IMG/VR virus record: IMGVR_UViG_2974764813_000001
Coordinates: 32,001 to 96,000 of that record
Strand: one strand, 5' to 3'
Origin: a virus
Taxonomy: Duplodnaviria > Caudoviricetes
Length of the DNA: 64,000 nucleotides
Below, piece by piece: positions 2,080 to 21,049 of this stretch. Made by a program: the position numbers and the translations under genes. Position 1 is the stretch's first letter. Each line of letters starts with the position of its first letter. The notes below the pieces were generated by a model. That model worked only from the letters and a program-made list of their open reading frames with translations. It ran no database searches and had not been told where the DNA came from.

Positions 2080-4638
2080 GTGACCAACGCTTTGCGCCGT
2101 GTCGTAACGGGCTCGACCCGTCGTGTTGCAGACTCCGACATCAGCCAGCTGGTCGCGAAGTATCGCAAGACCGGCACCGTGGCCAAGAAGTGGTCGCCCG
2201 AGCCGGGTTTCGTCTACGCACAGGTGCGGGCGATCTCGGCTCGGGTGAACCAGAACTTCGACGCCTGGCCGTCGGGGGAGCTGCAGAAGGCCGCCCACAC
2301 CTTCGTGGGCAAGCCGATCTTCGTCAACCACAAGAACTTCGATGTGAAGAGGGCCCGCGGCAAGGTGGTGGCCGCGCGCTACATCGAGTCCGGTGACGAC
2401 AAGTACATCGAGACCATCATGGAGGTCGACGCCCAGCGTTACCCCAAGCTGGCCAAGGAGATCGTCGACGGCGGCCTCGACAGCGTCTCGATGGGCGTGG
2501 AGGCCGGGTTCACCGTCTGCTCGGCGTGCAACAACCGCGCCACCGACGAGCACGAGTTCTGCGACCACGTGCGCCACCACAAGGGCCAGAAGATCTGGGT
2601 CACCAACCACAAGACGGGCAAACGCGAGCAGAAGCTGGTCTACGAGGACTGCTTCAAGCTCGGATTCTTCGAGCTGTCTTGGGTTTTCGATCCGGCCGAC
2701 GAGACGGCCCTGACGTCTCGGGTGATGGTCGCCAACAACGGCCGAGTGGCCTATGGCGAGACCGAGGTCCCCGAAGACATCGACACGCTTCGCGATGACG
2801 AGAACGACAGCCTCGACGACTACGAGTTCGTCGAGCCGGTCGATCTCACCACCCCGGAGAACCCCTTCCAGCACTACCTGGAGTCCCCGCCGGAACTGTC
2901 CGGCCCGGATTTCGACATGACCAAACGCCTTGACCGCCAACAGGAGGAACAGGGCCTCGATGGCGACCGTCTCGTCGAAGACATCGGCGACGTCGAAGGT
3001 GATCCCGATTCAGTGGACGCCCCACCAAGGAGGAAGACCATGGGCCGTACCCGCACCGATGCACGTCGTCATGCCGCCGACGAGCACGACGCTCTGGAAG
3101 AGCTCGAAGAGATTGTGCACGAAGACCTCGACGGCGACGGCGAGTCCGGCGAGGACGAGGACCACCGCGAAGAGGTCCTCGACGACGACGCCGACGAGAC
3201 CCCCGAAGAGGACTCGGACGATGACTCCGACGACGAGGGCGACGACGCCCCGGAGTGGGTCGAGAAGCGCGAAGCACAGCGTCGCTCTGCAAAGACGCGC
3301 CGCCGCGCAGGAAAGAAGGGACAGACGAAAGGATCTGCGATGACTGCCACTGCTGCCCGCCGCCGCCAGGCCGACACTTCCGGCCACACCGACGGTGGTC
3401 CCTACGGGGAGAACAACCAGGGCGAGCAGGAAGAGGTCTTCATCTCGCAGACCCCCGCGGCCGAGGCTCTGGTGGCCCCGACCGGCGACGAGTCCAAGAT
3501 CAACAACACCGAGAGCAACCTGGTGGCCAGCATCAAGGCCAAGGGCGCCTCACTGCAGCGCGACCTCGACGCCTACCAGCGCCTGCAGGCCGCCAAGCGT
3601 GCGTCCTCGCGTCCCTACCGCCAGACCGCTGACTTCGTGGCCAGCCTGCCGGTGGGCGAACGTGTCGCTGCCGCACAGCGTTTCGCTGCAGTGTTCGCCG
3701 CCGAGAACCCGAAGTTTTCACCCCGCAAGTTCTTCGCCCACGCGGGCATCAACGCCGAGATGATCCGGTCGGCCCAGCGCCGCACGGCCGACGCGGTCGA
3801 GCAGGCCGACAAGGTCAACCCGGAGCTCAGCGGCACCGACGACCAGAGCCTGCGCGGTGACGACTTCGACGACGTCTCGCTCGACGACGTCGAGACCCAG
3901 CCCAAGGACGCCAGCAAGAAGGTCTTCGCGGCCTTCGAGACCTGGGTCCGCACGCAGACCGGCAAGACCGCCGCGCAGCACAACCCGAACTGGCTGCGCC
4001 GCCAGGCAGCTCGCTGGGCCACGAACCAGGGCCTGGATGTCGCCGTTCTGTACCCGACCCTGGGAAATGTCCTGCGCCAAGCCCGAAAGGGTGAAGCAAC
4101 GACAGGAGCTCCCATGAACCGCCGCGCAAACGACACGTCGCTGGATGTTGCAGCACCGGACGGGCGCGTGGACGTGGAGGCCCCTGTGGCCAACGAGACC
4201 GACGCTGACGCGCAAGCCTCTCAGTACGACCTGAAGGACTTCGCGCACAACGCCGGTGACGATCTCGCCGACCCGGAACTCAGTTCGGATTCTCAGATCT
4301 GGGCTCCCGGCGAGGGTGACAAGACAGCAGCCAAGGCTGACGGCGTGGCGGCGGTTCGATATGCCGAAGCTGTCATCAATGCCGGGCTCGCTCCCGCCAC
4401 CGACCGCTGGAAGCTCGCCAAGCAGGCCGAGACCATGCGGCGCCCCGTGGTCGTAGACCGCACCCGCCTGCTGGAGGCAGTGGCAACTGTCAACGCCTCC
4501 AAGACCAGCAAGACCGCCGCGGCAGTTTCGCGGGGTACTGCGCTCCCTCGGGGGCTGACCAATACGCCCCGCGTCGCCGCGACGAATCCCCGCCTGGCAG
4601 CGGCCGATCCGTCTGACGACTCCGCACTCTTCTTCTGA
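2080..4638 (+). CDS. Prohead maturation protease fused to scaffolding region
   Basis: N-terminal GKPIFVNH...RGKVVAA...VSMG...CSAC...CDH...FELSWVFDPAD; acidic/low-complexity C-terminus; just upstream of decoration and capsid genes. Confidence 0.7.
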   Translation: MTNALRRVVTGSTRRVADSDISQLVAKYRKTGTVAKKWSPEPGFVYAQVRAISARVNQNFDAWPSGELQKAAHTFVGKPIFVNHKNFDVKRARGKVVAARYIESGDDKYIETIMEVDAQRYPKLAKEIVDGGLDSVSMGVEAGFTVCSACNNRATDEHEFCDHVRHHKGQKIWVTNHKTGKREQKLVYEDCFKLGFFELSWVFDPADETALTSRVMVANNGRVAYGETEVPEDIDTLRDDENDSLDDYEFVEPVDLTTPENPFQHYLESPPELSGPDFDMTKRLDRQQEEQGLDGDRLVEDIGDVEGDPDSVDAPPRRKTMGRTRTDARRHAADEHDALEELEEIVHEDLDGDGESGEDEDHREEVLDDDADETPEEDSDDDSDDEGDDAPEWVEKREAQRRSAKTRRRAGKKGQTKGSAMTATAARRRQADTSGHTDGGPYGENNQGEQEEVFISQTPAAEALVAPTGDESKINNTESNLVASIKAKGASLQRDLDAYQRLQAAKRASSRPYRQTADFVASLPVGERVAAAQRFAAVFAAENPKFSPRKFFAHAGINAEMIRSAQRRTADAVEQADKVNPELSGTDDQSLRGDDFDDVSLDDVETQPKDASKKVFAAFETWVRTQTGKTAAQHNPNWLRRQAARWATNQGLDVAVLYPTLGNVLRQARKGEATTGAPMNRRANDTSLDVAAPDGRVDVEAPVANETDADAQASQYDLKDFAHNAGDDLADPELSSDSQIWAPGEGDKTAAKADGVAAVRYAEAVINAGLAPATDRWKLAKQAETMRRPVVVDRTRLLEAVATVNASKTSKTAAAVSRGTALPRGLTNTPRVAATNPRLAAADPSDDSALFF

Positions 4639-6599: not shown

Positions 6600-9500
6600 G
6601 TGAAACGTATTATCACCCACCGCGAGCAGGCCGAGGCGATGCAGTGGTGGCAGCAGGGCGCCATCATGCGCACCGCTGCCAGGGACTACTCGAAGATGAC
6701 CCTCTTGCAGGCCATCAACGAGGACGGCGTCCCCGACCTCTGGCTCGACGCCCATCCCGAATGGGTCGAGCTGATCAAGATGCCGGGAAACAAGGCGTTC
6801 TGGAAGCAGGAGCTCAGCCAAAACGGCGACTGGGACCTGGTCCAGGACTACCTGGAGATCAAGGCCGAAGACGGCGACCAGAACGCCTTCGACGTCCTCG
6901 ACGACCACCGCAAAAACAGCCTGATCGGCCAAGGCGCGGTGCCGATGAACTGGCACTCCGGTGACGACGACGACTACGAACTGGATCCCGGCGACGTCGA
7001 TTTCGACGACGACTTCGAGGAGCACCCGGAGCCCGACGAGTCCTCCGTGGGCTCGCTGCTGCCCGACATCTCCGGCATGAGCCTGCGGGAGTTGCTGGAC
7101 TCCGGTGTCAACAGCGCCTCTGTCCACGAGTGGCTCGACAAGCACCCCAACATCAATGCCGTGCTCAAGGACCCCAGCGATCCGGCGCACCAGATCATCC
7201 TCGACGAGGTCGGCAAGAAGCTCGCTCCGCACCTGGACCCCTCCGACTACCCGGAAGTGCACCAGGCCGTCGGCACCGACACGAAGGGTGTCCCCAGCCA
7301 CGAAGACATGCAGCAGCTCGCTGAGGGGCTCTACGGCGGCCCGCACGGCGACCACAGCGACATCATCAACGCCTGGAAGCAGTGGAGTCCCCAGGACTGG
7401 AAGGACAACCTCGAGGTCGCGGCCACCGGTCAGGCCGGACCGCACTGGAAGGCGCTGGCCGACAAGATGCTCGGCGACAACAAGACGCTGGGCCAGAAGC
7501 TCTCCGACGTGTTCGGCGGCCAGGGCATCAATGCCGAGGCGTTCGACTCCATGTCGCCCGAAGGGCAGAAGAACATGCTCGCCGAGTACCTGGGCAGCGC
7601 CACCGGCGAGAACGAGCACCCCGACGTCAAAAAGCTCTTCGACGAGCACTTCGGCGACCCCAAGGGCCACCCCCTCAAGCCCCAGAGCGACGAGGAGTGG
7701 AACGACTTCATGCAGACGATGTTCCCCGGCCTGGGCGAGGGTGCGCTGCAGAACAGCCTCAACAGCTGGAAGTCGCTGAGCGATAAGCAGTGGGAGGACA
7801 TCGCCGACGGCACCCACCCCGCGGGCTCCGGCGTGGGATTCAAGAACTGGAAGAAGCTCAAGGACTACCCGGACAAGCCCTCCACGGGGCTCAACGACGC
7901 CGTCGACGAACTGCTCAACGAACTGTCCGGCGACCCGTGGAACAGCGACGTCAAGCCCAGCACGCCCAGTAAGCCCACCAACCCGTGGGACAACCCGCCC
8001 AAGTCTGGCGACTCCCAGAGCGTGCTCGCCCCGATCAAGTCTCCGGGAGGCAAACCCCTCTACGGCGAGCCTGGCCCGTCCTTCGGTGTCAGCTACAACC
8101 CCGGTGACCGTCAGAGCCGCCCGATGAGTCTGGACTCGCCGATGTTCAACGAGGACAACCGGCCGATGATGCCCGACGGCCGCTGGTACTTCTCGCCCAG
8201 CGACCACAACCCGCTGTCGCAGAGCGATGCGCGCCCCGAGGTCCGCTGGGACCGCAACGACTTCGAGGAAGACGACGTGCTGCCGGGCATGCCGACCGAG
8301 AACCGGTCGGTGAAGCTCTACCGCGGCGAGCCGATCAACCTCGATCACCCCGGCGCCGCGCACATCAAGAAGATGCTCTACGGCGAGACGCCCGACCCCG
8401 ACACCCCGATGCTGCCGGGCACGGAGCAGCTGATGGGCGCCCCGGCCTACGGCAAGGGCTCACCGCGCGAAGGACTGCCCGACGCGGACTGGGCCACCAA
8501 GTACCTGCACCAGACGGTCCCCGGCCTCAACAAGGACGAGGAGTTCTGGACCGACGACCTGATCAAGGACCTGCCCGACGACAACCCGGTGGTCCAGGCG
8601 TGGCGCCGCGGCCACGACGCCGACAGCGACCCGTTCCGCAACCCCGAGCTGGGCAAGGCGCTGCTCGACCACTGGGAGAAGACCCGCGGCAAGGACTACC
8701 CCGGCCCCGATCTGCAGGGCCTGGGACGGCACTGGACGCTCGATCCCGGCCTGGCCAGCAACTTCGGCGGCGCCAACAGCCGCTACGTCCTGCCGACGCG
8801 GTTCGTCTCGGAGTGGGACGGCAGCGGTGAGGACCCGTACCGCTCCAACACCGGCGGCGACTACCCGCACGAGAAGGAGATCACCAAGATCCCCGGCTCG
8901 CCCATGAAGATCGTCGATGTCCAGGTCAAGCACCCCGACACCTACGAATGGGTCTCGGCCTGGCCCAAGGGGCACACCGAGACCCGCTACTCGTCGCGCG
9001 GCGGGATCACCGGCCACCGCGAACAGGCCGAGGCGCTCGCGCAGCTGGAGTACCTCTACCGCACCGGGGCGTTGTCCGACAGCGAGTACTACGCACGGGT
9101 GCGCCAGGTGATGGACCAGGTGGACAACGCCCGCCGGTCGGGCCAGACCACCAACAAGCTGCACGCCGGTCCGATGGCGGGCTACTCGCTGCCGCGCTAC
9201 ATCCAGCAGCAGCAGCTGCTCAACGACGCCTGGAAGGAGCTGGGGGAGAACGTGCCCCGCAACCGCCACGGGCTGATCGTCGGCGGGCTGCCCGGCTCGG
9301 GCAAATCCACCGTGCTCGACAACCACGCCGAGATCGAAGGCGTCGGCCCGGTCAAGGGCAACTTCCTGCGCATCGACCCGGACTACTTCAAGGAGCAGAT
9401 GGGCAAGCGGGGGATGACCCCGCAGATCGAGGGGCTCTCACCGCTGGAGACCGCGGCGCTGATCCACGACGAGTCCACCGACCTGGCCCACCGGCTGGCC

Positions 9501-9866
9501 CACCGCGCCTACCAGGAGGGCACCAACGTCGCCTGGGACGGCACGCTGCGGTATCCGGGCACCGACAAGATCGAGGACTTCAAGAAGCACGGGTACACCC
9601 CGCACGGCATCTTCGTCGACCTGCCGCTGGACGCCTCGGTGCAACGGGCCCAGGAGCGTTACCGTCGGGGGCATGAGGGGTATGTCGCCGGGACCAACCC
9701 GCTCGGCGGCCGCCTGGTGCCCGAGGACTACATCCGCAGCAGCGCCAGCCCGCAGCCGGGGTTCAACTCGATCAACCGCAAGAACTTCGAGGACATGCGC
9801 GCGCACTTCGCCACTCCGGCACAGGTCTGGGACAGCACGGACCTGCCCCCGCGGCGACTTGAGTAA
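6600..9866 (+). CDS. Multidomain protein: leader + acidic helical region + ADP-ribosyltransferase-like domain + second leader + zeta-toxin-like P-loop kinase
   Basis: GGAGGAGG RBS; KLYRG / RHWTLDPGLA / HEKEI ART-like motifs; GGLPGSGKST Walker A plus IDPDYFK, IHDES, WDGT, GGRLVP zeta-family motifs. Confidence 0.75.
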   Translation: MKRIITHREQAEAMQWWQQGAIMRTAARDYSKMTLLQAINEDGVPDLWLDAHPEWVELIKMPGNKAFWKQELSQNGDWDLVQDYLEIKAEDGDQNAFDVLDDHRKNSLIGQGAVPMNWHSGDDDDYELDPGDVDFDDDFEEHPEPDESSVGSLLPDISGMSLRELLDSGVNSASVHEWLDKHPNINAVLKDPSDPAHQIILDEVGKKLAPHLDPSDYPEVHQAVGTDTKGVPSHEDMQQLAEGLYGGPHGDHSDIINAWKQWSPQDWKDNLEVAATGQAGPHWKALADKMLGDNKTLGQKLSDVFGGQGINAEAFDSMSPEGQKNMLAEYLGSATGENEHPDVKKLFDEHFGDPKGHPLKPQSDEEWNDFMQTMFPGLGEGALQNSLNSWKSLSDKQWEDIADGTHPAGSGVGFKNWKKLKDYPDKPSTGLNDAVDELLNELSGDPWNSDVKPSTPSKPTNPWDNPPKSGDSQSVLAPIKSPGGKPLYGEPGPSFGVSYNPGDRQSRPMSLDSPMFNEDNRPMMPDGRWYFSPSDHNPLSQSDARPEVRWDRNDFEEDDVLPGMPTENRSVKLYRGEPINLDHPGAAHIKKMLYGETPDPDTPMLPGTEQLMGAPAYGKGSPREGLPDADWATKYLHQTVPGLNKDEEFWTDDLIKDLPDDNPVVQAWRRGHDADSDPFRNPELGKALLDHWEKTRGKDYPGPDLQGLGRHWTLDPGLASNFGGANSRYVLPTRFVSEWDGSGEDPYRSNTGGDYPHEKEITKIPGSPMKIVDVQVKHPDTYEWVSAWPKGHTETRYSSRGGITGHREQAEALAQLEYLYRTGALSDSEYYARVRQVMDQVDNARRSGQTTNKLHAGPMAGYSLPRYIQQQQLLNDAWKELGENVPRNRHGLIVGGLPGSGKSTVLDNHAEIEGVGPVKGNFLRIDPDYFKEQMGKRGMTPQIEGLSPLETAALIHDESTDLAHRLAHRAYQEGTNVAWDGTLRYPGTDKIEDFKKHGYTPHGIFVDLPLDASVQRAQERYRRGHEGYVAGTNPLGGRLVPEDYIRSSASPQPGFNSINRKNFEDMRAHFATPAQVWDSTDLPPRRLE

Positions 9867-9870
9867 GAAA

Positions 9871-9879
9871 TGGTATAGT
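9871..9879 (+). promoter_or_regulatory. Extended -10 SigA-type promoter (TGG-TATAGT)
   Basis: AT-rich island between zeta gene and the following small ORF. Confidence 0.55.
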
Positions 9880-9919
9880 TTATGTATAGAACTATTGACA
9901 CGGCAGGGAAGGGGTGATC

Positions 9920-10186
9920 ATGGAGCGACCTCAGACCTACCGTGAGGCGGCCGACTGGTTCGTCGAGGGCAAGCTGACGTTCGACCAGTTGCACGACGCG
10001 ATGGGGTACCTGCCCCCGCCGGAGACACGCCGAGAGCCGCAGTCGCTGGCCGACATCTACGACATCGCCGACGAACCTCGCGGGCCCAACTCGACATTCT
10101 GGATCGCCGTGCTCGAGACCTGCGGAAAGATCACCCTCGACCAACTCGTCGAGCTCCTGGAGACCGTTGCTGAAATCCACCGGTGA
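9920..10186 (+). CDS. Small helical protein, candidate antitoxin/immunity protein
   Basis: 88 aa, internal repeat GKLTFDQL/GKITLDQL, own promoter, directly after the zeta domain. Confidence 0.6.
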   Translation: MERPQTYREAADWFVEGKLTFDQLHDAMGYLPPPETRREPQSLADIYDIADEPRGPNSTFWIAVLETCGKITLDQLVELLETVAEIHR

Positions 10187-10219
10187 TGCGGATTCTAGAC
10201 CATTTCTAGGTTTGCACTG

Positions 10220-10248
10220 TTGCCCTTCTGGGAATTTCCACTTACAGT
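10220..10248 (+). promoter_or_regulatory. SigA-like promoter TTGCCC-N17-TACAGT
   Basis: Canonical spacing, upstream of the 10281 ORF. Confidence 0.55.
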
Positions 10249-10280
10249 AATCAGGTAAGCTCCGGGAAGGGGGTGAAGGT

Positions 10281-10487
10281 ATGCACAGCTACCTGGTAAC
10301 CATGCTCGACCGAATGACAGGCAGCGAATGCCGCGTGGTGGTGCAGGCCGAGTGCCCCCACGATATGCAGGAGTTTGTGGATCGTCTTGCGCGCGAAGGC
10401 AAACTGCCCATCAGCAGCCCGGTGGTCGTCGACATCGACGACCGCGCCGCCGCGCACGTCCCCTTGGTGAACCCAGCCAAGCTCTAA
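10281..10487 (+). CDS. Hypothetical protein (68 aa)
   Basis: RBS-like purine run, flanked by a promoter and a terminator. Confidence 0.6.
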   Translation: MHSYLVTMLDRMTGSECRVVVQAECPHDMQEFVDRLAREGKLPISSPVVVDIDDRAAAHVPLVNPAKL

Positions 10488-10504
10488 TTCCACTTTCGGT
10501 GATG

Positions 10505-10534
10505 ACCCCAGAGCGCTGACGCTCTGGGGTTTTC
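10505..10534 (+). terminator. Intrinsic terminator
   Basis: accccagagcg-ctga-cgctctggggt-ttt. Confidence 0.8.
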
Positions 10535-10622
10535 GCTGTTCGGTGCCTGCGCCCCTGTGCGGAAGACCCGTGCCATCCCGGAATAGATGAGTACGTGTTT
10601 TGTCCGACCGCAAGGAGACACC

Positions 10623-11249
10623 ATGACCACCACGACTGCTACGCCGACACCGCGCACCATCGCCGAACTGCGCAAGCACGACGGGCCGATCTACATGGCT
10701 AACAACACCGCCAACCGGGTGCACTGCCACGAGCAGCTCGGTGATCACCGCGTCGACTTCGAGCTCGACCCGGTCGGCGGCGAGGACTCGATCCAGATGG
10801 TGCCCAAGATGGCCCTGGAGGTCCGCGGCATCCAGAAGATGTGGCGCAACGGCGACCTGACCGTGAGCACCGACGAGTCGATGGAAGAGCAGATCACCCT
10901 GCTCATCGACCGCAACATCAAGACCCCGCAGGACCGCCTCAACGGCATCATGGCCGCCAGCGGCGACGGGGCCACCCTGCAGGTCGAGGGGTCGGCCAAC
11001 GGCAAGAACCTCACCGAGAAGGCGTGCCTGGAGTGCGGCGCCTACGACCCGAAGACCGGTGTGCTGCTGCGCGGCCGTGTGGTGATGCGGGTCTCCGACG
11101 TCGAAGAGGGTGTCGCGCCGCTGTGCGCGACCCACCAGCACCTGTCCACGCAGTGGGCCGGTCGCCAGGTCCTCGCCGACACCGACGAGACCCCGCACTG
11201 GGAGTTCGACAAGGTCTCGCTCACCGCCCCGGTGCGCGAACAGGGCTGA
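10623..11249 (+). CDS. Hypothetical protein with CxxC...CxxH motif
   Basis: AAGGAG RBS before ATG 10623; CLEC/CATH. Confidence 0.65.
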   Translation: MTTTTATPTPRTIAELRKHDGPIYMANNTANRVHCHEQLGDHRVDFELDPVGGEDSIQMVPKMALEVRGIQKMWRNGDLTVSTDESMEEQITLLIDRNIKTPQDRLNGIMAASGDGATLQVEGSANGKNLTEKACLECGAYDPKTGVLLRGRVVMRVSDVEEGVAPLCATHQHLSTQWAGRQVLADTDETPHWEFDKVSLTAPVREQG

Positions 11250-11268
11250 TCCACAAGGAGGAAAGAAC

Positions 11269-11430
11269 ATGGCAGATACCCCAGTCTGGGCAGGCCAGGT
11301 GCCGCACCTGATCACCGGTGCCTACCAGAAGAAGCAGTTCCGCTCCGGCCTCGCCGGAGGCATTCAGGAGACGGTCTTCGACGCGCTGGCCTACCCGCCG
11401 GAGTCGGGCGTCGAGGCCACTGAGGCCTGA
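11269..11430 (+). CDS. Small protein (53 aa), paralog of 12550..12840
   Basis: AAGGAGG RBS; shares VFDALAYPPESG. Confidence 0.6.
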   Translation: MADTPVWAGQVPHLITGAYQKKQFRSGLAGGIQETVFDALAYPPESGVEATEA

Positions 11431-11437
11431 CCCTGCC

Positions 11438-11629
11438 ATGTTCACCGCAGCGGAACTGAGCTGGTACAAGGCGGGCGCACTGGTTCGCCAGCCCCGCCTT
11501 GTCCCAGGCGAACCCAATCTCTCTTCCATCGCCCATGCCATGGCCAGCCCGCCGATGCCGAACCCCGACTTCATCGTGGACACCGGCAGCGACCGCATCG
11601 ACGGGGAGATCGACGGAGGGACACCGTAA
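11438..11629 (+). CDS. Small virion-associated protein (63 aa)
   Basis: Ends IDGGTP; stop abuts the in-frame ATG of the next gene. Confidence 0.5.
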   Translation: MFTAAELSWYKAGALVRQPRLVPGEPNLSSIAHAMASPPMPNPDFIVDTGSDRIDGEIDGGTP

Positions 11630-12460
11630 ATGCCCGAACTGAGGCGAATCAGGTTTCGTCGAGGCACCCCAGCAGAATGGGCTGACGCCGATCCGGTGCT
11701 TCCGGCCGGATCTCTGAATGTAGAGATCGACGGCGTCAACAGCGTGGCCCGCATCAAGGTGGGTATCGGGGCTCGCTGGACGGAGACGCCCTTTGTCGGC
11801 TCTGACAGCGAGGGCGGCGGCACGGTCACTGTCGCCGATGTCGTCGGCCTGACCGACGCCCTGAGCGAAAAAGCCGACGTCACTCACGACCACAGCGGGG
11901 TGTACGCCCCGACGAGTCACGACCACAGCGGGGTGTACGCCCCCACCAGCCACACTCACGACACTTCGCAGGTGGACGGGCTGGAGACCTTGCTCGGCGA
12001 GAAGGTGGACACCTCCACCACGGTGGCCGCCGGGACCGGCTTGACCGGCGGTGGGACGCTGGATGCCAACCGGACCTTGGCACTGAGCTCGGCCTCGATT
12101 GCCTCGCTGGCCAAAGCCGACACTGCCGTGCAGCCCGAGGCCCTGACCGGACTCTCCCCGAACCTGGTGATCCGGCCCGAGAAGTCCGACAACACGGTGT
12201 TGATCGTGGCCGACGCCAACTCGTTCAGCAAAGTCAACACCACGCCAGGGACGGCCACCATCGTCGTGCCGCTGAACTCCGATGAGCCCATCCCTATCGG
12301 CGCGTCGGTCTACCTCATGGTCTCCGGCGCGAACGACATGAGCATCGGAGCCGACGACGGCGTCACGGTGCGCGCGGTGGATGACGTGATGGACATTTCG
12401 GGGAACCACAGGTTGGCCCACCTGCTCAAGGTCGGCACCGACGAGTGGATCTTGCAGTGA
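11630..12460 (+). CDS. Fibre/minor structural protein with Mtd-N/hyaluronidase-like N-terminus
   Basis: RIRFRRGTPAEWADADPVL motif; HxH repeats; AGTGLTGGG fibre motif. Confidence 0.65.
   Translation: MPELRRIRFRRGTPAEWADADPVLPAGSLNVEIDGVNSVARIKVGIGARWTETPFVGSDSEGGGTVTVADVVGLTDALSEKADVTHDHSGVYAPTSHDHSGVYAPTSHTHDTSQVDGLETLLGEKVDTSTTVAAGTGLTGGGTLDANRTLALSSASIASLAKADTAVQPEALTGLSPNLVIRPEKSDNTVLIVADANSFSKVNTTPGTATIVVPLNSDEPIPIGASVYLMVSGANDMSIGADDGVTVRAVDDVMDISGNHRLAHLLKVGTDEWILQ
11885..11950 (+). repeat. 33-bp tandem repeat x2 (HDHSGVYAPTS)
   Basis: cacgaccacagcggggtgtacgcccc repeated at a 33-nt period. Confidence 0.85.
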
Positions 12461-12549
12461 TCCCTTGACCTGACTCACCTGTGCTCGCACGCCTCCCGCC
12501 CGGTAATAGGCGAAGGGATTTGCAGCACCCCAGCAAGGAGAAGAGTGAT

Positions 12550-12840
12550 ATGACCGCAGTGCCCGAAGCCGTCCGGCTGGCCTACCAGACTCGCCACTAC
12601 AACGCGGGCATCCCGGTCAAGCCCGACAACAGCGTGTTCGACGCGCTGGCCTACCCGCCGGAGAGCGGCCTGGAAGCCCAGGAAGCCGCACTCGCGGCGG
12701 CCCAGGAAGTCGGCATCATCGCACCGGACCCGGCCGCCCTCAAGGGTGCGGTCGCCCACCGCGACGTCATCAAGCAGTTCTACGACTCGGCCAGCATCCT
12801 GCGTCCCGTCGCAGACGACAACACCGACGAAAACGGCTAG
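12550..12840 (+). CDS. Small virion-associated protein
   Basis: ATG 12550 after purine-rich RBS; paralogous to the 11269 ORF. Confidence 0.6.
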   Translation: MTAVPEAVRLAYQTRHYNAGIPVKPDNSVFDALAYPPESGLEAQEAALAAAQEVGIIAPDPAALKGAVAHRDVIKQFYDSASILRPVADDNTDENG

Positions 12841-12886
12841 AGCCCGCTTCGATTTCGCCGTTCTCCACTGACACGAGAGGACAGAG

Positions 12887-14491
12887 GTGGCTACTGCCTG
12901 GCCGGATGGCTATGACGACTTCGGCGTACCTTCCCTGCCGGAAGAGACACCTCTGTCCTCTGCGGGGGACAGTGCCCGCAACCACCCCGAACTGCTGCGC
13001 GACGTCGGCGATGCCGTCGAGGCCCTGCAGCGCGGTGTGGCGCGCAAGATTCACGATCACTCCGGTGACCCTGACGACATCGCCAAGGGCGACAAGCTCA
13101 AGCAGGCCAACACCCACGAGGACGCCGACACCGACTCCTCACCCACGGCGCTGCACCACACCCTGGGCTTCGGTGCGCACCAGGCCATGCCGGGCAACCA
13201 CGTGCCCAACTACGCCGACCTGCCGGGCGCGCCGTTCCGTATCTGCACCTCCACCACCCGGCCCGGAGCACCGTTCCGCGGCCAGGTGATCTACGAGACC
13301 GACACCAAGTGCTTCCGGCAGTGGGAGCTGTTCAACAACAACGCGGTGATCACCGGGCTCAACTCGCAGATCAACTTCGATACCGTCGATGCCACTACCA
13401 TCGGTGGCGGCGGCTGGGACATCACCATCGCCAGCGGGGACACCACCCACGGCATCCCGGCCACCCCCGACGGCACGCTGCGCTGGATCGACGGCGGCAA
13501 CCAGACCAACCGCTTCTGGGCGCGACGCACCAACCCGCTGGACGCGGAGACCGAGACCGACGACCAGATCATCACCTGGAAGACCGGCGACACCGTCATC
13601 GAATCGGAACTGCCGCTGACCGACGGCGCCACCAACGACGTCTACTTCCGGGTCAGCGAGGACGAGCAGAGCTACATCAAGCTGCGCGTCGGCGACCAGT
13701 ACATCAAGGCGTTCTACACGACCTCCGGCCGGGAGAACGAGAAGGCTCTCGGCGAGCTGTCCAACATCGAGACCCAGTTGTCCAACGCGACGTGGTCCGG
13801 CGAGATGACCGACCGCACCCTCTCGCTGTACTGCGGCGGGGAGTTCATGGGCTCGATCAAGGACACCAAGGCCGTCACCGCCAAAGGCGCCGACAACCGC
13901 GGCTGGATGATCGGCATGCAGGCCGGTGCCCGCGGCCTGGGCCAGACCACCCCGGCCAACATCGACTGGGTCCGCATCCAGGACCGGCGCTACTTCACCT
14001 CGGTCAACCGCTGGAGCCTGCTGCCGCTGGGCCGTGTCCCGGTGTGCCGCCTGCGCCAGTCCAAGAACCAGCAGCTCATGCGCACCGGCACCATCCTGGA
14101 GTTCGCCGAGGAGGTCGAGGACACCTTCGGCTTCTTCGACAAGGCGGTGTCGCAGACCGACGTCGTGATCACCGAGCCCGGCACCTACGACATCACCGCG
14201 ACGCTGCAGTGGGATCCGCAGAGGGTGCCCGACCAGGCCCACGCGCTGGTCATGGTCAACGGCCAGGAGACCGAGATCAAGGACTCGAAGTTCCTGCGCG
14301 GCAACGGTGCGCAGCCGGGCTTCTCCCAGACCCTGGCGATCACCGGCACCCTGCCTCTGGTGGCCGGTGACGTCATCCAGGTCAAGGCCCGCTTCGAGGC
14401 GTCCGGCGGCCTGCTCAACCAGATCTTCTCCTACTTCGACGCCGCGTCGAAGGTCAACTCTCGTCTCGAGATCACATTCCGGGGGCCGTGA
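12887..14491 (+). CDS. Minor structural/fibre protein, beta-rich, possible C1q/TNF-like C-terminal domain
   Basis: STTRPGAPFRGQVIYETDT motif; C-terminal VVITEPGTYDITATL...LVAGDVIQV. Confidence 0.6.
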   Translation: MATAWPDGYDDFGVPSLPEETPLSSAGDSARNHPELLRDVGDAVEALQRGVARKIHDHSGDPDDIAKGDKLKQANTHEDADTDSSPTALHHTLGFGAHQAMPGNHVPNYADLPGAPFRICTSTTRPGAPFRGQVIYETDTKCFRQWELFNNNAVITGLNSQINFDTVDATTIGGGGWDITIASGDTTHGIPATPDGTLRWIDGGNQTNRFWARRTNPLDAETETDDQIITWKTGDTVIESELPLTDGATNDVYFRVSEDEQSYIKLRVGDQYIKAFYTTSGRENEKALGELSNIETQLSNATWSGEMTDRTLSLYCGGEFMGSIKDTKAVTAKGADNRGWMIGMQAGARGLGQTTPANIDWVRIQDRRYFTSVNRWSLLPLGRVPVCRLRQSKNQQLMRTGTILEFAEEVEDTFGFFDKAVSQTDVVITEPGTYDITATLQWDPQRVPDQAHALVMVNGQETEIKDSKFLRGNGAQPGFSQTLAITGTLPLVAGDVIQVKARFEASGGLLNQIFSYFDAASKVNSRLEITFRGP

Positions 14492-15483
14492 TGACCAGCG
14501 AACCGTCGGGCATCATGATTAGCAGCCCGAAGATCCGCGACCAGGCACTGGTGCGCAAGTTCGTCTCCCAGGGCGGCCGCGGCTACATCGCCTTGGACAT
14601 CCGCACCCCCGAGGGGTCGGTGGACCCCGACGAGGGCAGCCTGCAGCTCAAGGTGTGGTTCAACGACGTCACCGCCCAGGTCCCGGTCTCCGATGACCCG
14701 CGCGGCGTGCTGGCGCTGGAGGTGTCCCACGACGAACTGCACCGCGAGGACACCGGCAAGTACGACTACGAGATCGGTCCCGCCCTGACCAGCCAGCGCG
14801 GGGTGTTCACCGTCGAGTGGCTCTACAAGGTCGGCGGCACCGAGTTCAGCTTCACCGACCACCTGCAGGTGCTCAGCCAGATGCCGCTGTACGACACTCT
14901 CTCGACGGCCGAGCGGCTCACCGTCGAGCAGGTGTCCTGGATGCTCGGCGATCTGTTTGACTCCACCGAGGGCGGCCCGTATCTCATCGAGCAGTTCCAG
15001 ACCCACTTCGACTACGAGCGCATCGCCCAGCTCGCCCAGATCGCCGTCACCCGGCTCAACACCACCGGCTTCCCGGTGACCTACTGGGCCTTCGGCGGCG
15101 ACGGCGGCGGCAACGTGGTGCCCAAGGAGTTCGCCGGGCTGCACGTACTGGCCACCTACTACGAGGTGGTGCGCCACCTGATCCGCTCGTACGTGGAGAT
15201 CCCCGCGCGCGTCGGCGCCAACATCACCTTCCTGGACCGTCGCGACTACATGCAGCGCTGGCAGTCCATCCTGGCCACCGAACTGCCGGAGTGGCAGAAG
15301 ATGGTCAAGACCGCCAAGCGCTCGCTGCTCGGCCTGGGCCGCGGCGCGCTGCTGGTCTCCGGCGGCATCTACGGCAGCGGCGCGACCGGTGTCTTCCAGT
15401 ACGGCATGTACGTCAGCCACACCCGCGCGTTCCGGTTCTATCCGGCGGCCCCGGCCGTGTCCTGGGGGTCGATTGGGCGATGA
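14488..15483 (+). CDS. Head-to-tail adaptor (neck) protein
   Basis: Position, size, translational coupling. Confidence 0.5.
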   Translation: MMTSEPSGIMISSPKIRDQALVRKFVSQGGRGYIALDIRTPEGSVDPDEGSLQLKVWFNDVTAQVPVSDDPRGVLALEVSHDELHREDTGKYDYEIGPALTSQRGVFTVEWLYKVGGTEFSFTDHLQVLSQMPLYDTLSTAERLTVEQVSWMLGDLFDSTEGGPYLIEQFQTHFDYERIAQLAQIAVTRLNTTGFPVTYWAFGGDGGGNVVPKEFAGLHVLATYYEVVRHLIRSYVEIPARVGANITFLDRRDYMQRWQSILATELPEWQKMVKTAKRSLLGLGRGALLVSGGIYGSGATGVFQYGMYVSHTRAFRFYPAAPAVSWGSIGR

Positions 15484-16109
15484 GCGTCGCGATCCTCAAG
15501 CAGGCACAGCAGTTCTCGTGGCGAACCTCATCGTTCCTCTGGGATGACCCGCGCGGCTACCTCGCGGCCAAGGAGTGGCTCGACAACGGCTTCGCATACC
15601 ACGCCGACGACTTCCGCGCGGGCGGGGAGAGTGCGCGCCAGGGCAGCCCGCACCCGTGGCCGGAGGGCTTCAACGAGGCCCGGCTGCTGCGCACCCCTGA
15701 TGGCCGCCGCGCCATCGGTTCGGAGATCTACCAGCGGCTCACCCAGGCGCAGCCGACGAAGTACGAGCTGTGGCGCGGGGTCACCGGCGACCTGCCCTAC
15801 ACCGAGGGCCAGACCGTCAGCATGCCGCTGTCGTCGTTCGCCATCGACAAGGCCAAGGCCAGCGAGTTCGCCCGCGAGACGCCGAAGGACACCGGCGGCT
15901 ACCTGCTGCGCATGAGCCCCGGATCGCAGTCCTACAAGCTCATCAACCACGACAACCCCGGCGAACTGCGCGGCTGGGATCCCGCAGGCGAGCACATCTC
16001 CATGGGCGACTTCCGGGTGAACCGCATCCACCAGCCCCGCAACCCCGGCGACCTGCCCATCGCCGACATCACCCACCTGGGCCTGGGCGCACCGGAGGTG
16101 AGGCCATGA
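15480..16109 (+). CDS. Leader-bearing ADP-ribosyltransferase-like protein (R-S-E type)
   Basis: ELWRGV...SMPLSSFAIDKAKASEFA...YLLRM...GEHISMGDFRV; ATGA-coupled start. Confidence 0.6.
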   Translation: MSVAILKQAQQFSWRTSSFLWDDPRGYLAAKEWLDNGFAYHADDFRAGGESARQGSPHPWPEGFNEARLLRTPDGRRAIGSEIYQRLTQAQPTKYELWRGVTGDLPYTEGQTVSMPLSSFAIDKAKASEFARETPKDTGGYLLRMSPGSQSYKLINHDNPGELRGWDPAGEHISMGDFRVNRIHQPRNPGDLPIADITHLGLGAPEVRP

Positions 16110-16486
16110 CCGCGATCCTCAAGCAAGCCGAGCAGTATTCCTGGCGGGTGGCGATGCCTTGGTATCACGTCAGTCCTCATGATCTCCCTGATGCCACCAG
16201 GCTGACTCCTGGTGGAGGGGAGTCAGCTTTTGGCGACGAGGTTTACCAGGATGAATTCAGCGATCATCCGAATCACGTTTGGATGTGGAATGACCTAAAC
16301 AGCGCCGTTCGGTTCCTGCCTGAGATCGGCGCCGAGAAGCGTCCTAACGGTGACTGGGAGCATGGCCACGTCTACGAGGTGGATCCAGAAGACCCCAGGC
16401 CTTGGTACAGCGGCCAGCACGGTTACGTGACTCCATCTGCGAAGATCATTCGTCAAGTCCCACAAGGCGAATGGGGGCAGCAGTGA
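16106..16486 (+). CDS. Leader-bearing Arr-like (H-type) ADP-ribosyltransferase-fold protein
   Basis: WYHVSP...LTPG...NHVWM...HVYEVDP...YVTPSAKIIRQV; GGAGG RBS; atypical codon usage. Confidence 0.55.
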   Translation: MTAILKQAEQYSWRVAMPWYHVSPHDLPDATRLTPGGGESAFGDEVYQDEFSDHPNHVWMWNDLNSAVRFLPEIGAEKRPNGDWEHGHVYEVDPEDPRPWYSGQHGYVTPSAKIIRQVPQGEWGQQ

Positions 16487-17397
16487 GCATCAAGCTGCCC
16501 GAAGACTTCGGCGTCAACCAGCTGCGCAAGGACGTTCGCGACTCCTTGCAGACCGCGGGGGAGCAGTGCATCGTGCTGGCGATGCGCCACCCTGTCGACG
16601 ACGACGACGCCGAGAAGTGCCCGGTCTGCGACGACGACATCTACAACGACGGCGAGGCCGACTGCGAGGTCTGCTACGGCACCCGCTACGCCCACCCGGT
16701 GCGCGAGGCCGCCAAGGTGTGGGCGGTGTTCTCCGACCAGACGAACGACGAGACCTACACCAAGCAGGGCGTGTTCCAGTCCGACGTGCGTGAGATCCAG
16801 ACCGAGGCGTTCCCGCGGCTGATGGAGCACGACTACGTCGTGCGCGTGCGCCGCTGGACCCCCGACGGCCGCGCCGCCGAGATCGAAGGCTTCTACACCG
16901 TCGACAAGGTCATCCCGAACTCGGTGCGCACCGGCAACCGCTTCGGCCAGGCCAGCTGGGACATCGTCGGCCAGAAGGCCACCGTGCGCGAGGTTCCGCG
17001 CACCTCGCTGGCGATCACGAAGTACCCGGTGCTGGGCAAGACCTTCAACGCGGGCCTGATCGAGCCGGTCGGCACCATGGCCACCCCGGCACCGGCACCG
17101 CCGGACACCAAGGTCGTCTACGTCCCGGTCATCTCGCCCGGCGCGAGCACCCCCGACCCAGACGACTCGCCCCCGCTGGTGCAGATGCCGCCCGGCACCT
17201 ACTGGCGGCGGGTGTTCTTCCACACCCAGAGCGCTCCCGCGGCCACCTGGACCATCGTGCACCCCTTCGACTACGACCCCTCGGTCACGCTCTTCGTCGG
17301 CGGCGAAGAAGCCGACACCGACGTCGAGTACCCCAACGACCACACCGTGGTGCTGACCTTCGCCGAACCCCAGGCCGGTGTCGCACAGCTCATCTGA
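16483..17397 (+). CDS. Head-tail joining/neck protein
   Basis: GTGA-coupled; CPVC/CEVC; C-terminal ATWTIVHPF small fibre-like domain. Confidence 0.5.
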   Translation: MSIKLPEDFGVNQLRKDVRDSLQTAGEQCIVLAMRHPVDDDDAEKCPVCDDDIYNDGEADCEVCYGTRYAHPVREAAKVWAVFSDQTNDETYTKQGVFQSDVREIQTEAFPRLMEHDYVVRVRRWTPDGRAAEIEGFYTVDKVIPNSVRTGNRFGQASWDIVGQKATVREVPRTSLAITKYPVLGKTFNAGLIEPVGTMATPAPAPPDTKVVYVPVISPGASTPDPDDSPPLVQMPPGTYWRRVFFHTQSAPAATWTIVHPFDYDPSVTLFVGGEEADTDVEYPNDHTVVLTFAEPQAGVAQLI

Positions 17398-19525: not shown

Positions 19526-21049
19526 ATGGCCGTTTCAAGCGCTGCGAATTTCGGCAGTCGGTACCTGCCGCCCGGCGTATACACGAGGATCGTCGACGGT
19601 CCTCAGCTGGCGGTCAACTCCTCGATGCCCACGGCGGTGGGCCTGTTCGGGACGGCGGTCGGGTTCCGCACCTGGCTGGAGACCTTGCAGATCAACCCCG
19701 ACACCGACGCCGAGACCCCCGCGATCAACCGGACCCTGGCCAAGCAGGGCATCGACGTCGAGACCCTGGTGGTGCGCAACCCCACCTCGGGCCAGACCTA
19801 CGTCGAGGGCACCGATTACACCGTCGAGCACATCGGCGGCACGATCAACACCCCCAACGCGACCTACGCCATCGCGCGGGTGATCGACGGCGGTCACATC
19901 GACCCCGGCACCGAGGTCCAGATCTCCTATCGCTACACCGATCCCAAGTACTTCGACCCGTACATCTTCTACGACTACGAAGACGTCCGCGCCGCCTACG
20001 GCGACCCGTACAACACGGCCACCGGCGAGATCCAGTCCGAGCTCACGCTGCACGCCAAGTTCGCCTTCGCCAACGGTGCCTACCAGGTCGTCTGCGTCGC
20101 GGTGGACCCGGCGACCCCCGGCTCGCCCACCACTGGCGAGTACGCCGACGCGCTGGCCAAGCTCTCCGACCAGCCGCAGGTCGCGGTCGTGTCGTCCTGC
20201 TCGGGCGCGGTCCCGCTGCACGCCCTGGTCCAGCAGCACGTGCGGGTGCAGTCCGACAACCGCTTCGAGCGCCGCGCGATCCTGGGCATGGACGGCAGCG
20301 TCACCCCGATTGCCTCCGCGCAGCGGATCCTCAACGCCCAGGCGCTCACCGACCGGCGCGTCGCCCTGGTCAGCCCGTCGAGCTTCGTCACCTACAGCGA
20401 AGAGCTCAACAACGAGGTCACCCTCGGCGGCCAGTACATGGCGACCTGCCTGGCGGCCATGACGGTGGCGATGGACTTCGCCCAGCCACTCACCCACAAG
20501 CGGATCACCGGCTGGAAGGCCATCGGCGAGCTGCAGCCCGAGGGCGAGAAGAACCTCGAGTCGCAAAACGGCCTGATGGTCGTGGAGCAGACCCGCCAGC
20601 AGATCATCCGGGTGCGCCACGGTGTGACCACCGACCCCACCGACCTGATCTCGCGCGAGTGGAACGTCACCGGCCAGACCGACGCGCTGACCTTCCGCAT
20701 CCGCGACTACCTGGAGGCGGCCAACCTGATCGGCCAGCCGATCTACGGCTACACGCTGATCAACGTCAAGAGCTCGGCGCAGTCCGCACTCGAAAGCCTT
20801 AAGCGCGACGGGCTTTTGGTCGACTACCACGGCCTCAAGGCCCGCCAGCTGCTGACCAACCCCGACGTCATCTCGGTGTCGTTCACCTGGCTCCCGGCCT
20901 TCCCGCTGAACTACATCGTCGTCGAGTTCGGCATCAGCCTCACCAACGGCGAGGTCTCCATCGGAGATACCGCCAACCTCAACAACTTTGGATCGCCGAG
21001 CGCCACCAACAGCTTCGGCGGCCCCGGAAACACCCTGCAGAGCATCTAA
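19526..21049 (+). CDS. Tail sheath protein
   Basis: YLPPGVYT N-terminus; RVRHGVTTD and FPLNYIVVEF C-terminal sheath motifs. Confidence 0.9.
   Translation: MAVSSAANFGSRYLPPGVYTRIVDGPQLAVNSSMPTAVGLFGTAVGFRTWLETLQINPDTDAETPAINRTLAKQGIDVETLVVRNPTSGQTYVEGTDYTVEHIGGTINTPNATYAIARVIDGGHIDPGTEVQISYRYTDPKYFDPYIFYDYEDVRAAYGDPYNTATGEIQSELTLHAKFAFANGAYQVVCVAVDPATPGSPTTGEYADALAKLSDQPQVAVVSSCSGAVPLHALVQQHVRVQSDNRFERRAILGMDGSVTPIASAQRILNAQALTDRRVALVSPSSFVTYSEELNNEVTLGGQYMATCLAAMTVAMDFAQPLTHKRITGWKAIGELQPEGEKNLESQNGLMVVEQTRQQIIRVRHGVTTDPTDLISREWNVTGQTDALTFRIRDYLEAANLIGQPIYGYTLINVKSSAQSALESLKRDGLLVDYHGLKARQLLTNPDVISVSFTWLPAFPLNYIVVEFGISLTNGEVSIGDTANLNNFGSPSATNSFGGPGNTLQSI

Follow-up and report, generated by a model that had tools for sequence, protein, structure and literature searches.

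Why should unrelated enzyme-like domains, encoded among the head genes of a single phage, each be preceded by the same kind of short peptide? This question is raised by a stretch of 64,000 nucleotides (the window, i.e., the whole stretch of DNA that was analysed), which comprises bases 32001-96000 of a one-contig phage genome of 136,361 bp, and in which four related leader peptides precede putative ADP-ribosyltransferase (ART) and kinase domains. A preliminary description of the window had proposed that this leader is a packaging signal that loads interchangeable effectors into the phage head. The present analysis establishes a leader family with a sharp boundary, selection at the level of the peptide, a diverse and shuffled set of cargoes, and placement in late gene modules. 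By analogy with the capsid targeting sequence (CTS) of phage T4, the leader may well be a modular virion-loading propeptide, possibly cut at R-T/V-A, a reading to which a probability of roughly 0.55 is assigned.

The leader and its family

P0001, a protein of 1088 amino acids (aa) encoded on the plus strand at positions 6600-9866 (GTG start, GGAGG ribosome site upstream), is composed of a leader, a region of ~510 aa without known domain, an R-S-ExE ART-like domain, an internal copy of the leader, and a zeta-toxin-type P-loop kinase. Its N-terminal leader (aa 2-27, KRIITHREQAEAMQWWQQGAIMRTAA; 6603-6680, plus strand) is a divergent form of the family consensus, M-R-R-I-V-T-A-R-E-Q-x-E-M-L-x-P-W-R-T-A, and the internal copy (aa 803-824, ITGHREQAEALAQLEYLYRTGA; 9006-9071, plus strand) is located at the junction of the ART and zeta modules. 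Short forms of the leader open two further plus-strand genes, encoding P0002 (aa 2-18; 15483-15533) and P0003 (aa 2-16; 16109-16153). Translation reproduced exactly all four leader strings given in the preliminary description, and the common shape that had been proposed for them agrees with the family profile in I, E-Q, W, R, x, and A. These four places were the sole matches in a regular-expression scan of the whole genome in six frames. They fall into two pairs: the N-terminal and internal copies of P0001 have HREQAEA in common (21 of 22 bases identical), and the leaders of P0002 and P0003 have AILKQAxQxSWR in common, as well as an identical run of 15 bases. P0002 and P0003 were rejected as full-length paralogues, as BLASTP convincingly aligned their leaders only. 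In the predicted model of P0003, leader residues 1-12 form a low-confidence extension outside the fold (predicted local distance difference test, pLDDT, <50).

Beyond this genome, the leader proved to be a real and widespread N-terminal module family that includes all four window copies and more than 100 proteins of related phages. A leader profile retrieved 67 proteins of 85-1146 aa from a collection of 5.8 billion proteins; the canonical leader was at the extreme N-terminus in 65 of these, the other two being the short-form P0002 and P0003. Such a profile search had been suggested in the preliminary description, and its matches in related phages indeed precede diverse cargoes. A 26-residue leader from phage Tonenili was encountered at 429 sites across 213 phage records (206 from Mycobacterium, 6 from Gordonia, and 1 from Mycolicibacterium), and in most of these Cluster C-like and Gordonia records the leader starts two to three genes of the late module. 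In Tonenili itself, the three genes following the capsid gene start MRRIVTAREQAEMLLPWRTA, MRITTAREQFEMLLPWREA, and (MCNH)RRIVTAREQFEMLQPWHREA. When the profile was constructed from non-window leaders, the N-terminus of P0001 ranked first among the 245,700 six-frame residues of the genome (E-value 1.6e-5), and the internal copy was recovered as the second domain of that top match, although on its own it was not significant (independent E-value 1.2). The leaders of P0002 and P0003 are too divergent for this canonical profile, and their membership therefore rests on bridging sequences: the P0003 homologue gp94 of ScoobyDoobyDoo starts MHRIVTAREQAEMLLPWRAAMPWYH, P0161 starts MRILSQAEQYPWRTAM and links both window types, and P0141 starts MMPILKQAEQFAYRVAG. 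The contig that encodes P0141 (Logan SRR26290402, from an uncultured phage) has a leader of the ILKQAEQ type on P0141 and one of the GITRAADRVAVWHEA type on the neighbouring 2893-aa P0103, so that two dialects on adjoining genes mirror the two dialects of the window.

In an independent test, 1.84 billion representative proteins were searched with the ART-like domain of P0001 (aa 540-801), from which the leader is excluded. This search returned 101 homologues including P0001 itself, and 26 of the 100 others carried an N-terminal leader at E<0.01, a number that rose to 35 and then 48 on iteration; of the internal control segments in this test, 0-1 of 455 matched the leader. Among the ART-found proteins further dialects were recognized, i.e., MARRILTHQEQF..., MPIERQxEQWPHRxA... 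(the P0002/P0003 type), and MALGIVRAADRVAVWHEA..., and the dialect MARRVITAREQYELAEPFLRLAAP was found on proteins of 2000-3279 aa.

Boundary of the leader and level of selection

Relative to the anchor T-A-R-E-Q, the family alignment contains ~4 bits of information per column from R(-3) to W(+11) and 0.3-0.7 bits after +15, the height of this conservation being partly selected because the leader search required shared words. The abrupt end of the conservation, directly after W-R-T-A, was not selected in this way. In 13 leaders from 10 loci, different codons are used in 330 of 737 same-residue codon pairs (45%), and this synonymous variation indicates that selection acts on the peptide and not on the nucleic acid; it also rules out a DNA or RNA element at gene starts. 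A Tat or ESX secretion signal appears unlikely on inspection by eye, as there is no hydrophobic core after RR and no YxxxD/E or WxG pattern.

Among all proteins collected, significant leader matches are N-terminal in 110 cases and internal in 4. Internal leader-like stretches are located at module junctions in P0008, P0036, and P0052, and in looser form in the giant proteins P0088-P0092; in P0036 and P0052 the ...SPWRTAA half alone survives. In P0074, which is 64% identical to the ART domain of P0001, the linker that precedes the zeta domain resembles the end of the protein's own N-terminal leader, and the linker of P0001 likewise resembles the leader of P0001. This pattern suggests that in each of these proteins the N-terminal and linker copies may answer to a common phage-specific partner. 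A partial leader-like peptide is also present just before the stop of the metagenomic ART proteins P0090, P0101, P0117, P0119, and P0132 (...AKRILTQRELLEG, ...KPKGILTHAERRL); such C-terminal peptides could be split genes, cassette remnants, or products of junction recoding.

Cargo repertoire

The leader family precedes interchangeable, mostly enzymatic cargoes in virion-gene modules, in agreement with what had been anticipated from the window. Pfam scanning of the 67 leader proteins assigned GNAT to nine, DUF7178 to eight, and Glutaredoxin to two of them, with single matches for zeta, ParB_N, Arr-ms, and SprT-like; no Pfam family covers the leader itself. BLAST links reveal that modules are shuffled among architectures, with relatives pairing the ART with zeta, GNAT, or DUF7178, and the combination of ART and zeta that is found in P0001 recurs in 4 of 25 large leader-bearing proteins. 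Cargoes reach sizes of up to 3279 aa. Kinship of P0001 to the DUF7178 proteins or to the cargo of Pupper gp109 was rejected, as the leaders alone align. No DUF7178 was found in the genome of the window phage in a scan in which the control genomes gave no match either.

Two leader proteins are conserved across Cluster C phages and their Gordonia relatives, i.e., Skog gp165/gp166 (L009:17941-21070) and Tonenili gp240/gp239 (L001:18108-21000). The domains of this pair are DUF7178 and a domain with the motifs HPDL...HGxVHTxGGRVLP / VHDFFGHAATG; in Skog, both proteins are annotated as 'glycosylase'. The pair is apparently absent from the window phage, which implies that even these are not core genes. 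ScoobyDoobyDoo has a third leader protein (L007:4278-4900, record ~65680-66300), which starts MTHRFLTAREQAECLSPWLRRA... and of which the cargo begins TVYHGTDNDAAESILRDGF...HSYFTT; this cargo looks like another H-Y-type ART or NAD-binding domain.

Genomic placement of leader genes

At the loci examined, leader genes always lie within late virion modules, and in Cluster C phages they directly follow the capsid gene. The leader-cargo genes that occupy the slot 3' of the phrog_2791 gene differ between the window phage, Skog, Pupper, and contig L005. In the metagenomic contig L011, a holin gene is followed by three consecutive leader genes and then by the genes for a 1600-aa zeta plus GNAT protein and a terminase, and in the metagenomic contig L013 a 1638-aa leader protein is encoded between virion and tail genes. 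In the window, the leader genes display translational coupling through 4-base overlaps with structural genes.

Candidate cleavage motif and protease-scaffold

The leader ends in (W)-R-T/V-A, and related motifs recur in the head module. The window encodes a prohead protease fused to a scaffold (852 aa; 2080-4638, plus strand; phrog_18299 head maturation protease, 1e-19), which is a candidate for both the enzyme and the partner in leader processing. This protein contains [RK]TA at 3781, 3964, 4321, and 4510 and PRVAA at 4567 (plus strand). Across four protease-scaffold proteins, [RK]-T-A occurs 17 times versus 4.1 expected (0 of 2000 shuffles), in a test that is not independent because R-T-A was picked with the data already in view and the four scaffolds are homologues of one another. 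Several R-T/V-A-type sites align among the scaffolds, including one ~20 residues from the C-terminus. Moreover, a TMLRTAGRQY stretch near the C-terminus of the LysM head-module protein (1893-1922, plus strand) resembles AIMRTAARDYS at the end of the first leader of P0001, and the pattern (M/L)-x-R-T-A-G-R-x-Y is kept in the LysM proteins of the window phage, Tonenili, ScoobyDoobyDoo, and Skog. These motif patterns make R-T/V-A a possible cleavage motif, and are to be regarded as a lead, not a result.

The protease-scaffold proteins of Tonenili (L001:10240-13950) and ScoobyDoobyDoo (L002:5583-9356) have K-T-A exactly at the end of the protease domain (~residue 219), a place at which the protease would be expected to free itself from the scaffold; this site is missing from the window protein.

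Cargo domains in the window

The enzyme labels of the preliminary description held to different degrees: the zeta-like kinase was confirmed by Pfam and the Arr-like fold of P0003 by Foldseek, and the ART assignments of P0001 and P0002 are supported to a lesser degree. The zeta-toxin-type kinase of P0001 (aa 892-1046; 9273-9737, plus strand; Walker A GGLPGSGKST at 9282-9311) matches PF06414 with an E-value of 4.1e-17 and 62.7 bits versus a cut-off of 22.3. The ART-like domain of P0001 (aa 540-801; 8217-9002, plus strand) has its LYRG arginine motif at 8313-8327, the HWTLD S/T motif at 8724-8744, and EKE (ExE) at 8868-8885. Across 28 sequences both glutamates of ExE are invariant and the histidine of the S/T motif, with consensus HWSTD, is nearly so. 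Alignment of its AlphaFold2 (AF2) model (pLDDT 75.5) with VIA-align gave a top 50 consisting almost entirely of ADP-ribosyltransferases, with Z at most 5.2; Foldseek returned no match for this model below an E-value of 0.1, and the domain has no sequence match in PDB or Pfam.

P0002 (209 aa; 15480-16109, plus strand) combines a short-form leader with an R-S-E ART-like domain (LWRG, LSSFA, GEH). It is a sequence orphan, for which homologue searches were empty; its own ESM Atlas model has template modelling (TM) scores of 0.59-0.67 to ADPrib_exo_Tox/ART clusters, and the nearest feature clusters carry ADPrib_exo_Tox or Mod_ADP_RT. In P0003 (126 aa; 16106-16486, plus strand) a short-form leader is fused directly to an Arr-like ART (WYHVS, HVWMW, VYEVDP). 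The top Foldseek matches of its model (pLDDT 69.5) are Arr (2hw2/9iaf; E-value 2e-4, probability 1.0), with a TM score of only ~0.4. P0003 has no Pfam match, and its homologue gp94 reaches 18.9 bits against Arr-ms (PF12120; E-value 0.0018), which is under the cut-off of 25. None of P0001-P0003 matched MuF (PF04233) or Phage_Mu_F at E<=0.1. Searches of the protease, the ART profile, and P0002 against solved structures gave no useful sequence match, and NCBIfam gave nothing.

Genome and surrounding genes

The genome has a G+C content of ~66% and an estimated completeness of 97% (CheckV). Its capsid region is ~75% identical at the DNA level to Cluster C mycobacteriophages (Bixzunavirus, Myrnavirus) and is matched more weakly by Gordonia phages; by sequence, the window phage and the Cluster C mycobacteriophages are distantly related. 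The order on the plus strand is the LysM protein, the protease-scaffold, a cement protein (PF23968), the major capsid protein (phrog_2522), and the region with the leader genes, which runs on via fibre-like and DUF7257 genes and further conserved structural-module genes. The LysM gene begins upstream of the window (genome 30829-34024), and window positions 12-2024 encode its C-terminal 670 aa; the upstream part of the protein contains a CxC...CxH stretch (CSCEWGRW...MCSH) that is SWIM zinc finger-like.

The P0002 and P0003 genes are inserted just downstream of a conserved structural-module gene (331 aa; 14488-15483, plus strand; phrog_2791), with the start of P0002 overlapping the upstream stop by 4 bases. 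The slot is closed by another conserved structural-module gene (16471-17397, plus strand; phrog_2806), of which the start overlaps the end of P0003. Further downstream, a gene for ~500 aa (19526-21049), which has no Pfam match, is regarded as the tail sheath gene from where it lies in comparison with the genes annotated as sheath in Skog and Pupper. Two small open reading frames (ORFs) directly follow the zeta-kinase domain of P0001 on its 3' side (9914-10186 and 10281-10487); scanning of this region (9914-10487) gave no family match. Genes for an antitoxin or immunity factor would be expected at this place, for which the two ORFs are tentative candidates at most. Two other small ORFs, at 11269-11430 and 12550-12840, each just 5' of a fibre-like or DUF7257 gene, have the motif VFDALAYPPESG(V/L)EA(T/Q)EA in common, which looks like a tandem duplication of a unit of small protein plus fibre.

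Discussion

The reading as a virion-loading propeptide can be phrased as a sequence of steps, in which we infer docking, cleavage, packaging, and injection, the packaging function by analogy with T4 and P1. The leader peptide would be made late, alongside the structural proteins, and its first half, a probable amphipathic helix (I-V-T-A-R-E-Q-x-E-M-L), would dock the cargo to the core or scaffold of the prohead under assembly. The second half, (W)-R-T/V-A, would form the boundary at which an S78-like prohead protease frees the cargo, and internal copies, such as that at the ART/zeta junction of P0001, would serve as polyprotein processing sites. The freed enzymes (ADP-ribosyltransferases and a zeta-type kinase here; GNATs, glutaredoxin, and DUF7178 elsewhere) may then enter the host together with the DNA and act in host takeover or counter-defence. 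In its most extended form, for which we would give somewhat less than even odds, the proposal is that one bipartite leader, i.e., a docking helix plus an R-T/V-A protease site, serves Cluster C-, Skog-, and Pupper-type actinophages and a wider set of uncultured relatives to load an open-ended set of enzymes (>100 architectures, up to 3279 aa) into the virion, and that its internal copies make polyproteins of the giant proteins, to be cut within the head.

Several observations weigh against a loading role. In the literature, no proteomic, N-terminal sequencing, or reporter data on leader proteins were found. The leader genes of the metagenomic contigs L011 and L013 are placed among tail, lysis, and terminase genes, not head genes, from which it follows that the target could be another part of the virion, or that the genes are simply late. 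The window's own leaders are divergent from the canonical form: in that of P0002, Q and S-S replace the E and the A, respectively, that are found in most leaders, and the canonical profile from non-window leaders does not detect the leaders of P0002 and P0003. The enrichment of the candidate cleavage motif is affected by the dependence mentioned above, and the window protease matches Peptidase_S78_2 only weakly (E-value 0.04), making its family assignment weak as well.

Alternative explanations were considered for the same observations. Copies or remnants of the leader lie exactly at module junctions in P0001, P0008, P0036, P0052, and P0088-P0092, some proteins end leader-like (...RILTQRELLEG), and the remnants retain the PWRTAA half with RIVTAREQ lost, as would be expected if the leader were solely a processing or junction element of polyvalent proteins, i.e., a protease or autoprocessing site or a recombination-prone boundary, with no role in targeting. 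This is nevertheless unlikely, as, of 114 significant occurrences, 110 lie at the very start of the protein, with nothing upstream to remove, the first half of the leader is its best conserved part, and the abundant synonymous variation contradicts a pure DNA recombination site. A destination outside the capsid, either elsewhere in the virion (tail lumen, baseplate, or neck) or in an ejectosome-like complex, appears a little more doubtful still: in L011, L013, Skog, and the window, leader genes do adjoin DUF7257 minor-tail-like genes as well as genes for fibres and lysis, and P0002 and P0003 are encoded between the head genes and the presumed sheath gene at 19526-21049, but in Cluster C phages the leader genes come directly after the major capsid gene, and enzymatic cargoes of up to 3279 aa resemble the head-packaged DarB of P1 and Alt of T4.

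It is improbable that the leader is a regulatory propeptide (for docking of a chaperone or immunity factor, or as a stability or translation signal) that silences toxic enzymes in the producing cell, without any entry into the virion. Many cargoes are toxin-like (zeta, ARTs) with no immunity genes identified, and the small unexplained ORFs 3' of the zeta domain (9914-10487) could be read in that sense; however, non-toxic-looking cargoes such as glutaredoxin and DUF7178 bear the same leader, the genes are consistently located in virion modules and translationally coupled to structural genes, and no conserved partner gene was seen beside leader genes across the loci. Finally, the near-identity of the DNA within each window pair (21/22 and 15/15 bases), the loose likeness of the two pairs to each other, and the failure of the canonical profile to recover the second pair might be taken to indicate chance or recent local duplication, an explanation that is scarcely credible given that the family extends far beyond this genome and that bridging sequences join both window types.

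If the leader is indeed a loading signal, it would provide a simple sequence rule for the proteins that are injected by mycobacteriophages and Gordonia phages, and a means to recognize by sequence the proteome that these phages inject; to our knowledge, almost nothing is known of injected proteins in actinophages. It would also point to enzymes for host takeover or counter-defence that act in Mycobacterium through ADP-ribosylation, zeta-type phosphorylation, and acetylation, and offer a tag, ready for use, by which foreign proteins could be packaged into mycobacteriophage particles, like the T4 and P1 signals for Escherichia coli phages. Moreover, it would tie the polyvalent proteins known from comparative genomics to a concrete delivery device, and it would mean that the T4 arrangement of constant leader and variable cargo either evolved independently or is much more general than has been assumed.

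Comparison with known systems

The preliminary description knew of no account of this leader in actinophages, and none was found in the searchable literature; nor did the literature on Cluster C phages yield relevant virion proteomics, cryo-electron microscopy, or a capsid targeting sequence. Constant modules with variable partners occur elsewhere. In the polymorphic toxins of temperate phages, reportedly described by Jamet et al. in 2017, interchangeable toxin domains are said to be carried by a constant head-associated MuF domain of ~300 aa; both systems join a constant module to interchangeable domains, the constant part being a 20-aa peptide here. In staphylococcal phage 80alpha, the capsid and scaffold proteins share a short N-terminal propeptide that is removed by an HK97-type prohead protease. 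The 80alpha propeptide sits on essential structural proteins, whereas the leader described here is found on accessory enzymes.

In their domain content, the large leader proteins resemble the polyvalent proteins of phages and conjugative elements in a 2017 study by Iyer, Burroughs, Anand, de Souza, and Aravind: multi-domain, shuffled effectors of the ART/GNAT/ParB/peptidase type, encoded beside virion genes, for which delivery together with the DNA is predicted. With its ART and zeta domains, P0001 fits that class, as do its relatives of 1000-3279 aa, with at least two effector or enzyme domains that are shuffled between relatives. The phage examples in that paper rest on MuF/portal fusions or on context, and capsid deployment is suspected there for a solo GNAT encoded by the Cluster C phage Alice (PMC5512222). 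A term search of the paper gave no mention of capsid targeting or of an N-terminal peptide, and zeta had 0 occurrences (PMC5512222).

The closest likeness is to the CTS of T4 (IPI-III, Alt), as in both cases a short N-terminal peptide is kept within a phage group on proteins that are otherwise unrelated. After loading, the T4 prohead protease removes the CTS, cutting at L/I-x-E. Judged by eye, the leader is not known to resemble the T4 CTS in sequence. The diverse and fast-evolving internal proteins of T-even phages, an ADP-ribosyltransferase among them, share only the N-terminal targeting peptide, by which they load onto the scaffolding core (PMC3012670). Unlike the T4 CTS, the leader is longer (~20 aa) and apparently bipartite, has internal copies, and precedes multi-domain cargoes of >3000 aa, and the protease of the window phage is, by a weak match, S78/HK97-like and not gp21-like; in the present system, loading and cleavage are presumptive. 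DarB of P1, which belongs to the Dar anti-restriction system, is similar in being a large enzyme cargo with a short N-terminal signal, its first 30 residues being sufficient for packaging, also of a reporter (PMC9024508). The N-termini of the P1 Dar proteins have no common consensus (PMC9024508), whereas here one consensus is found in >100 proteins.

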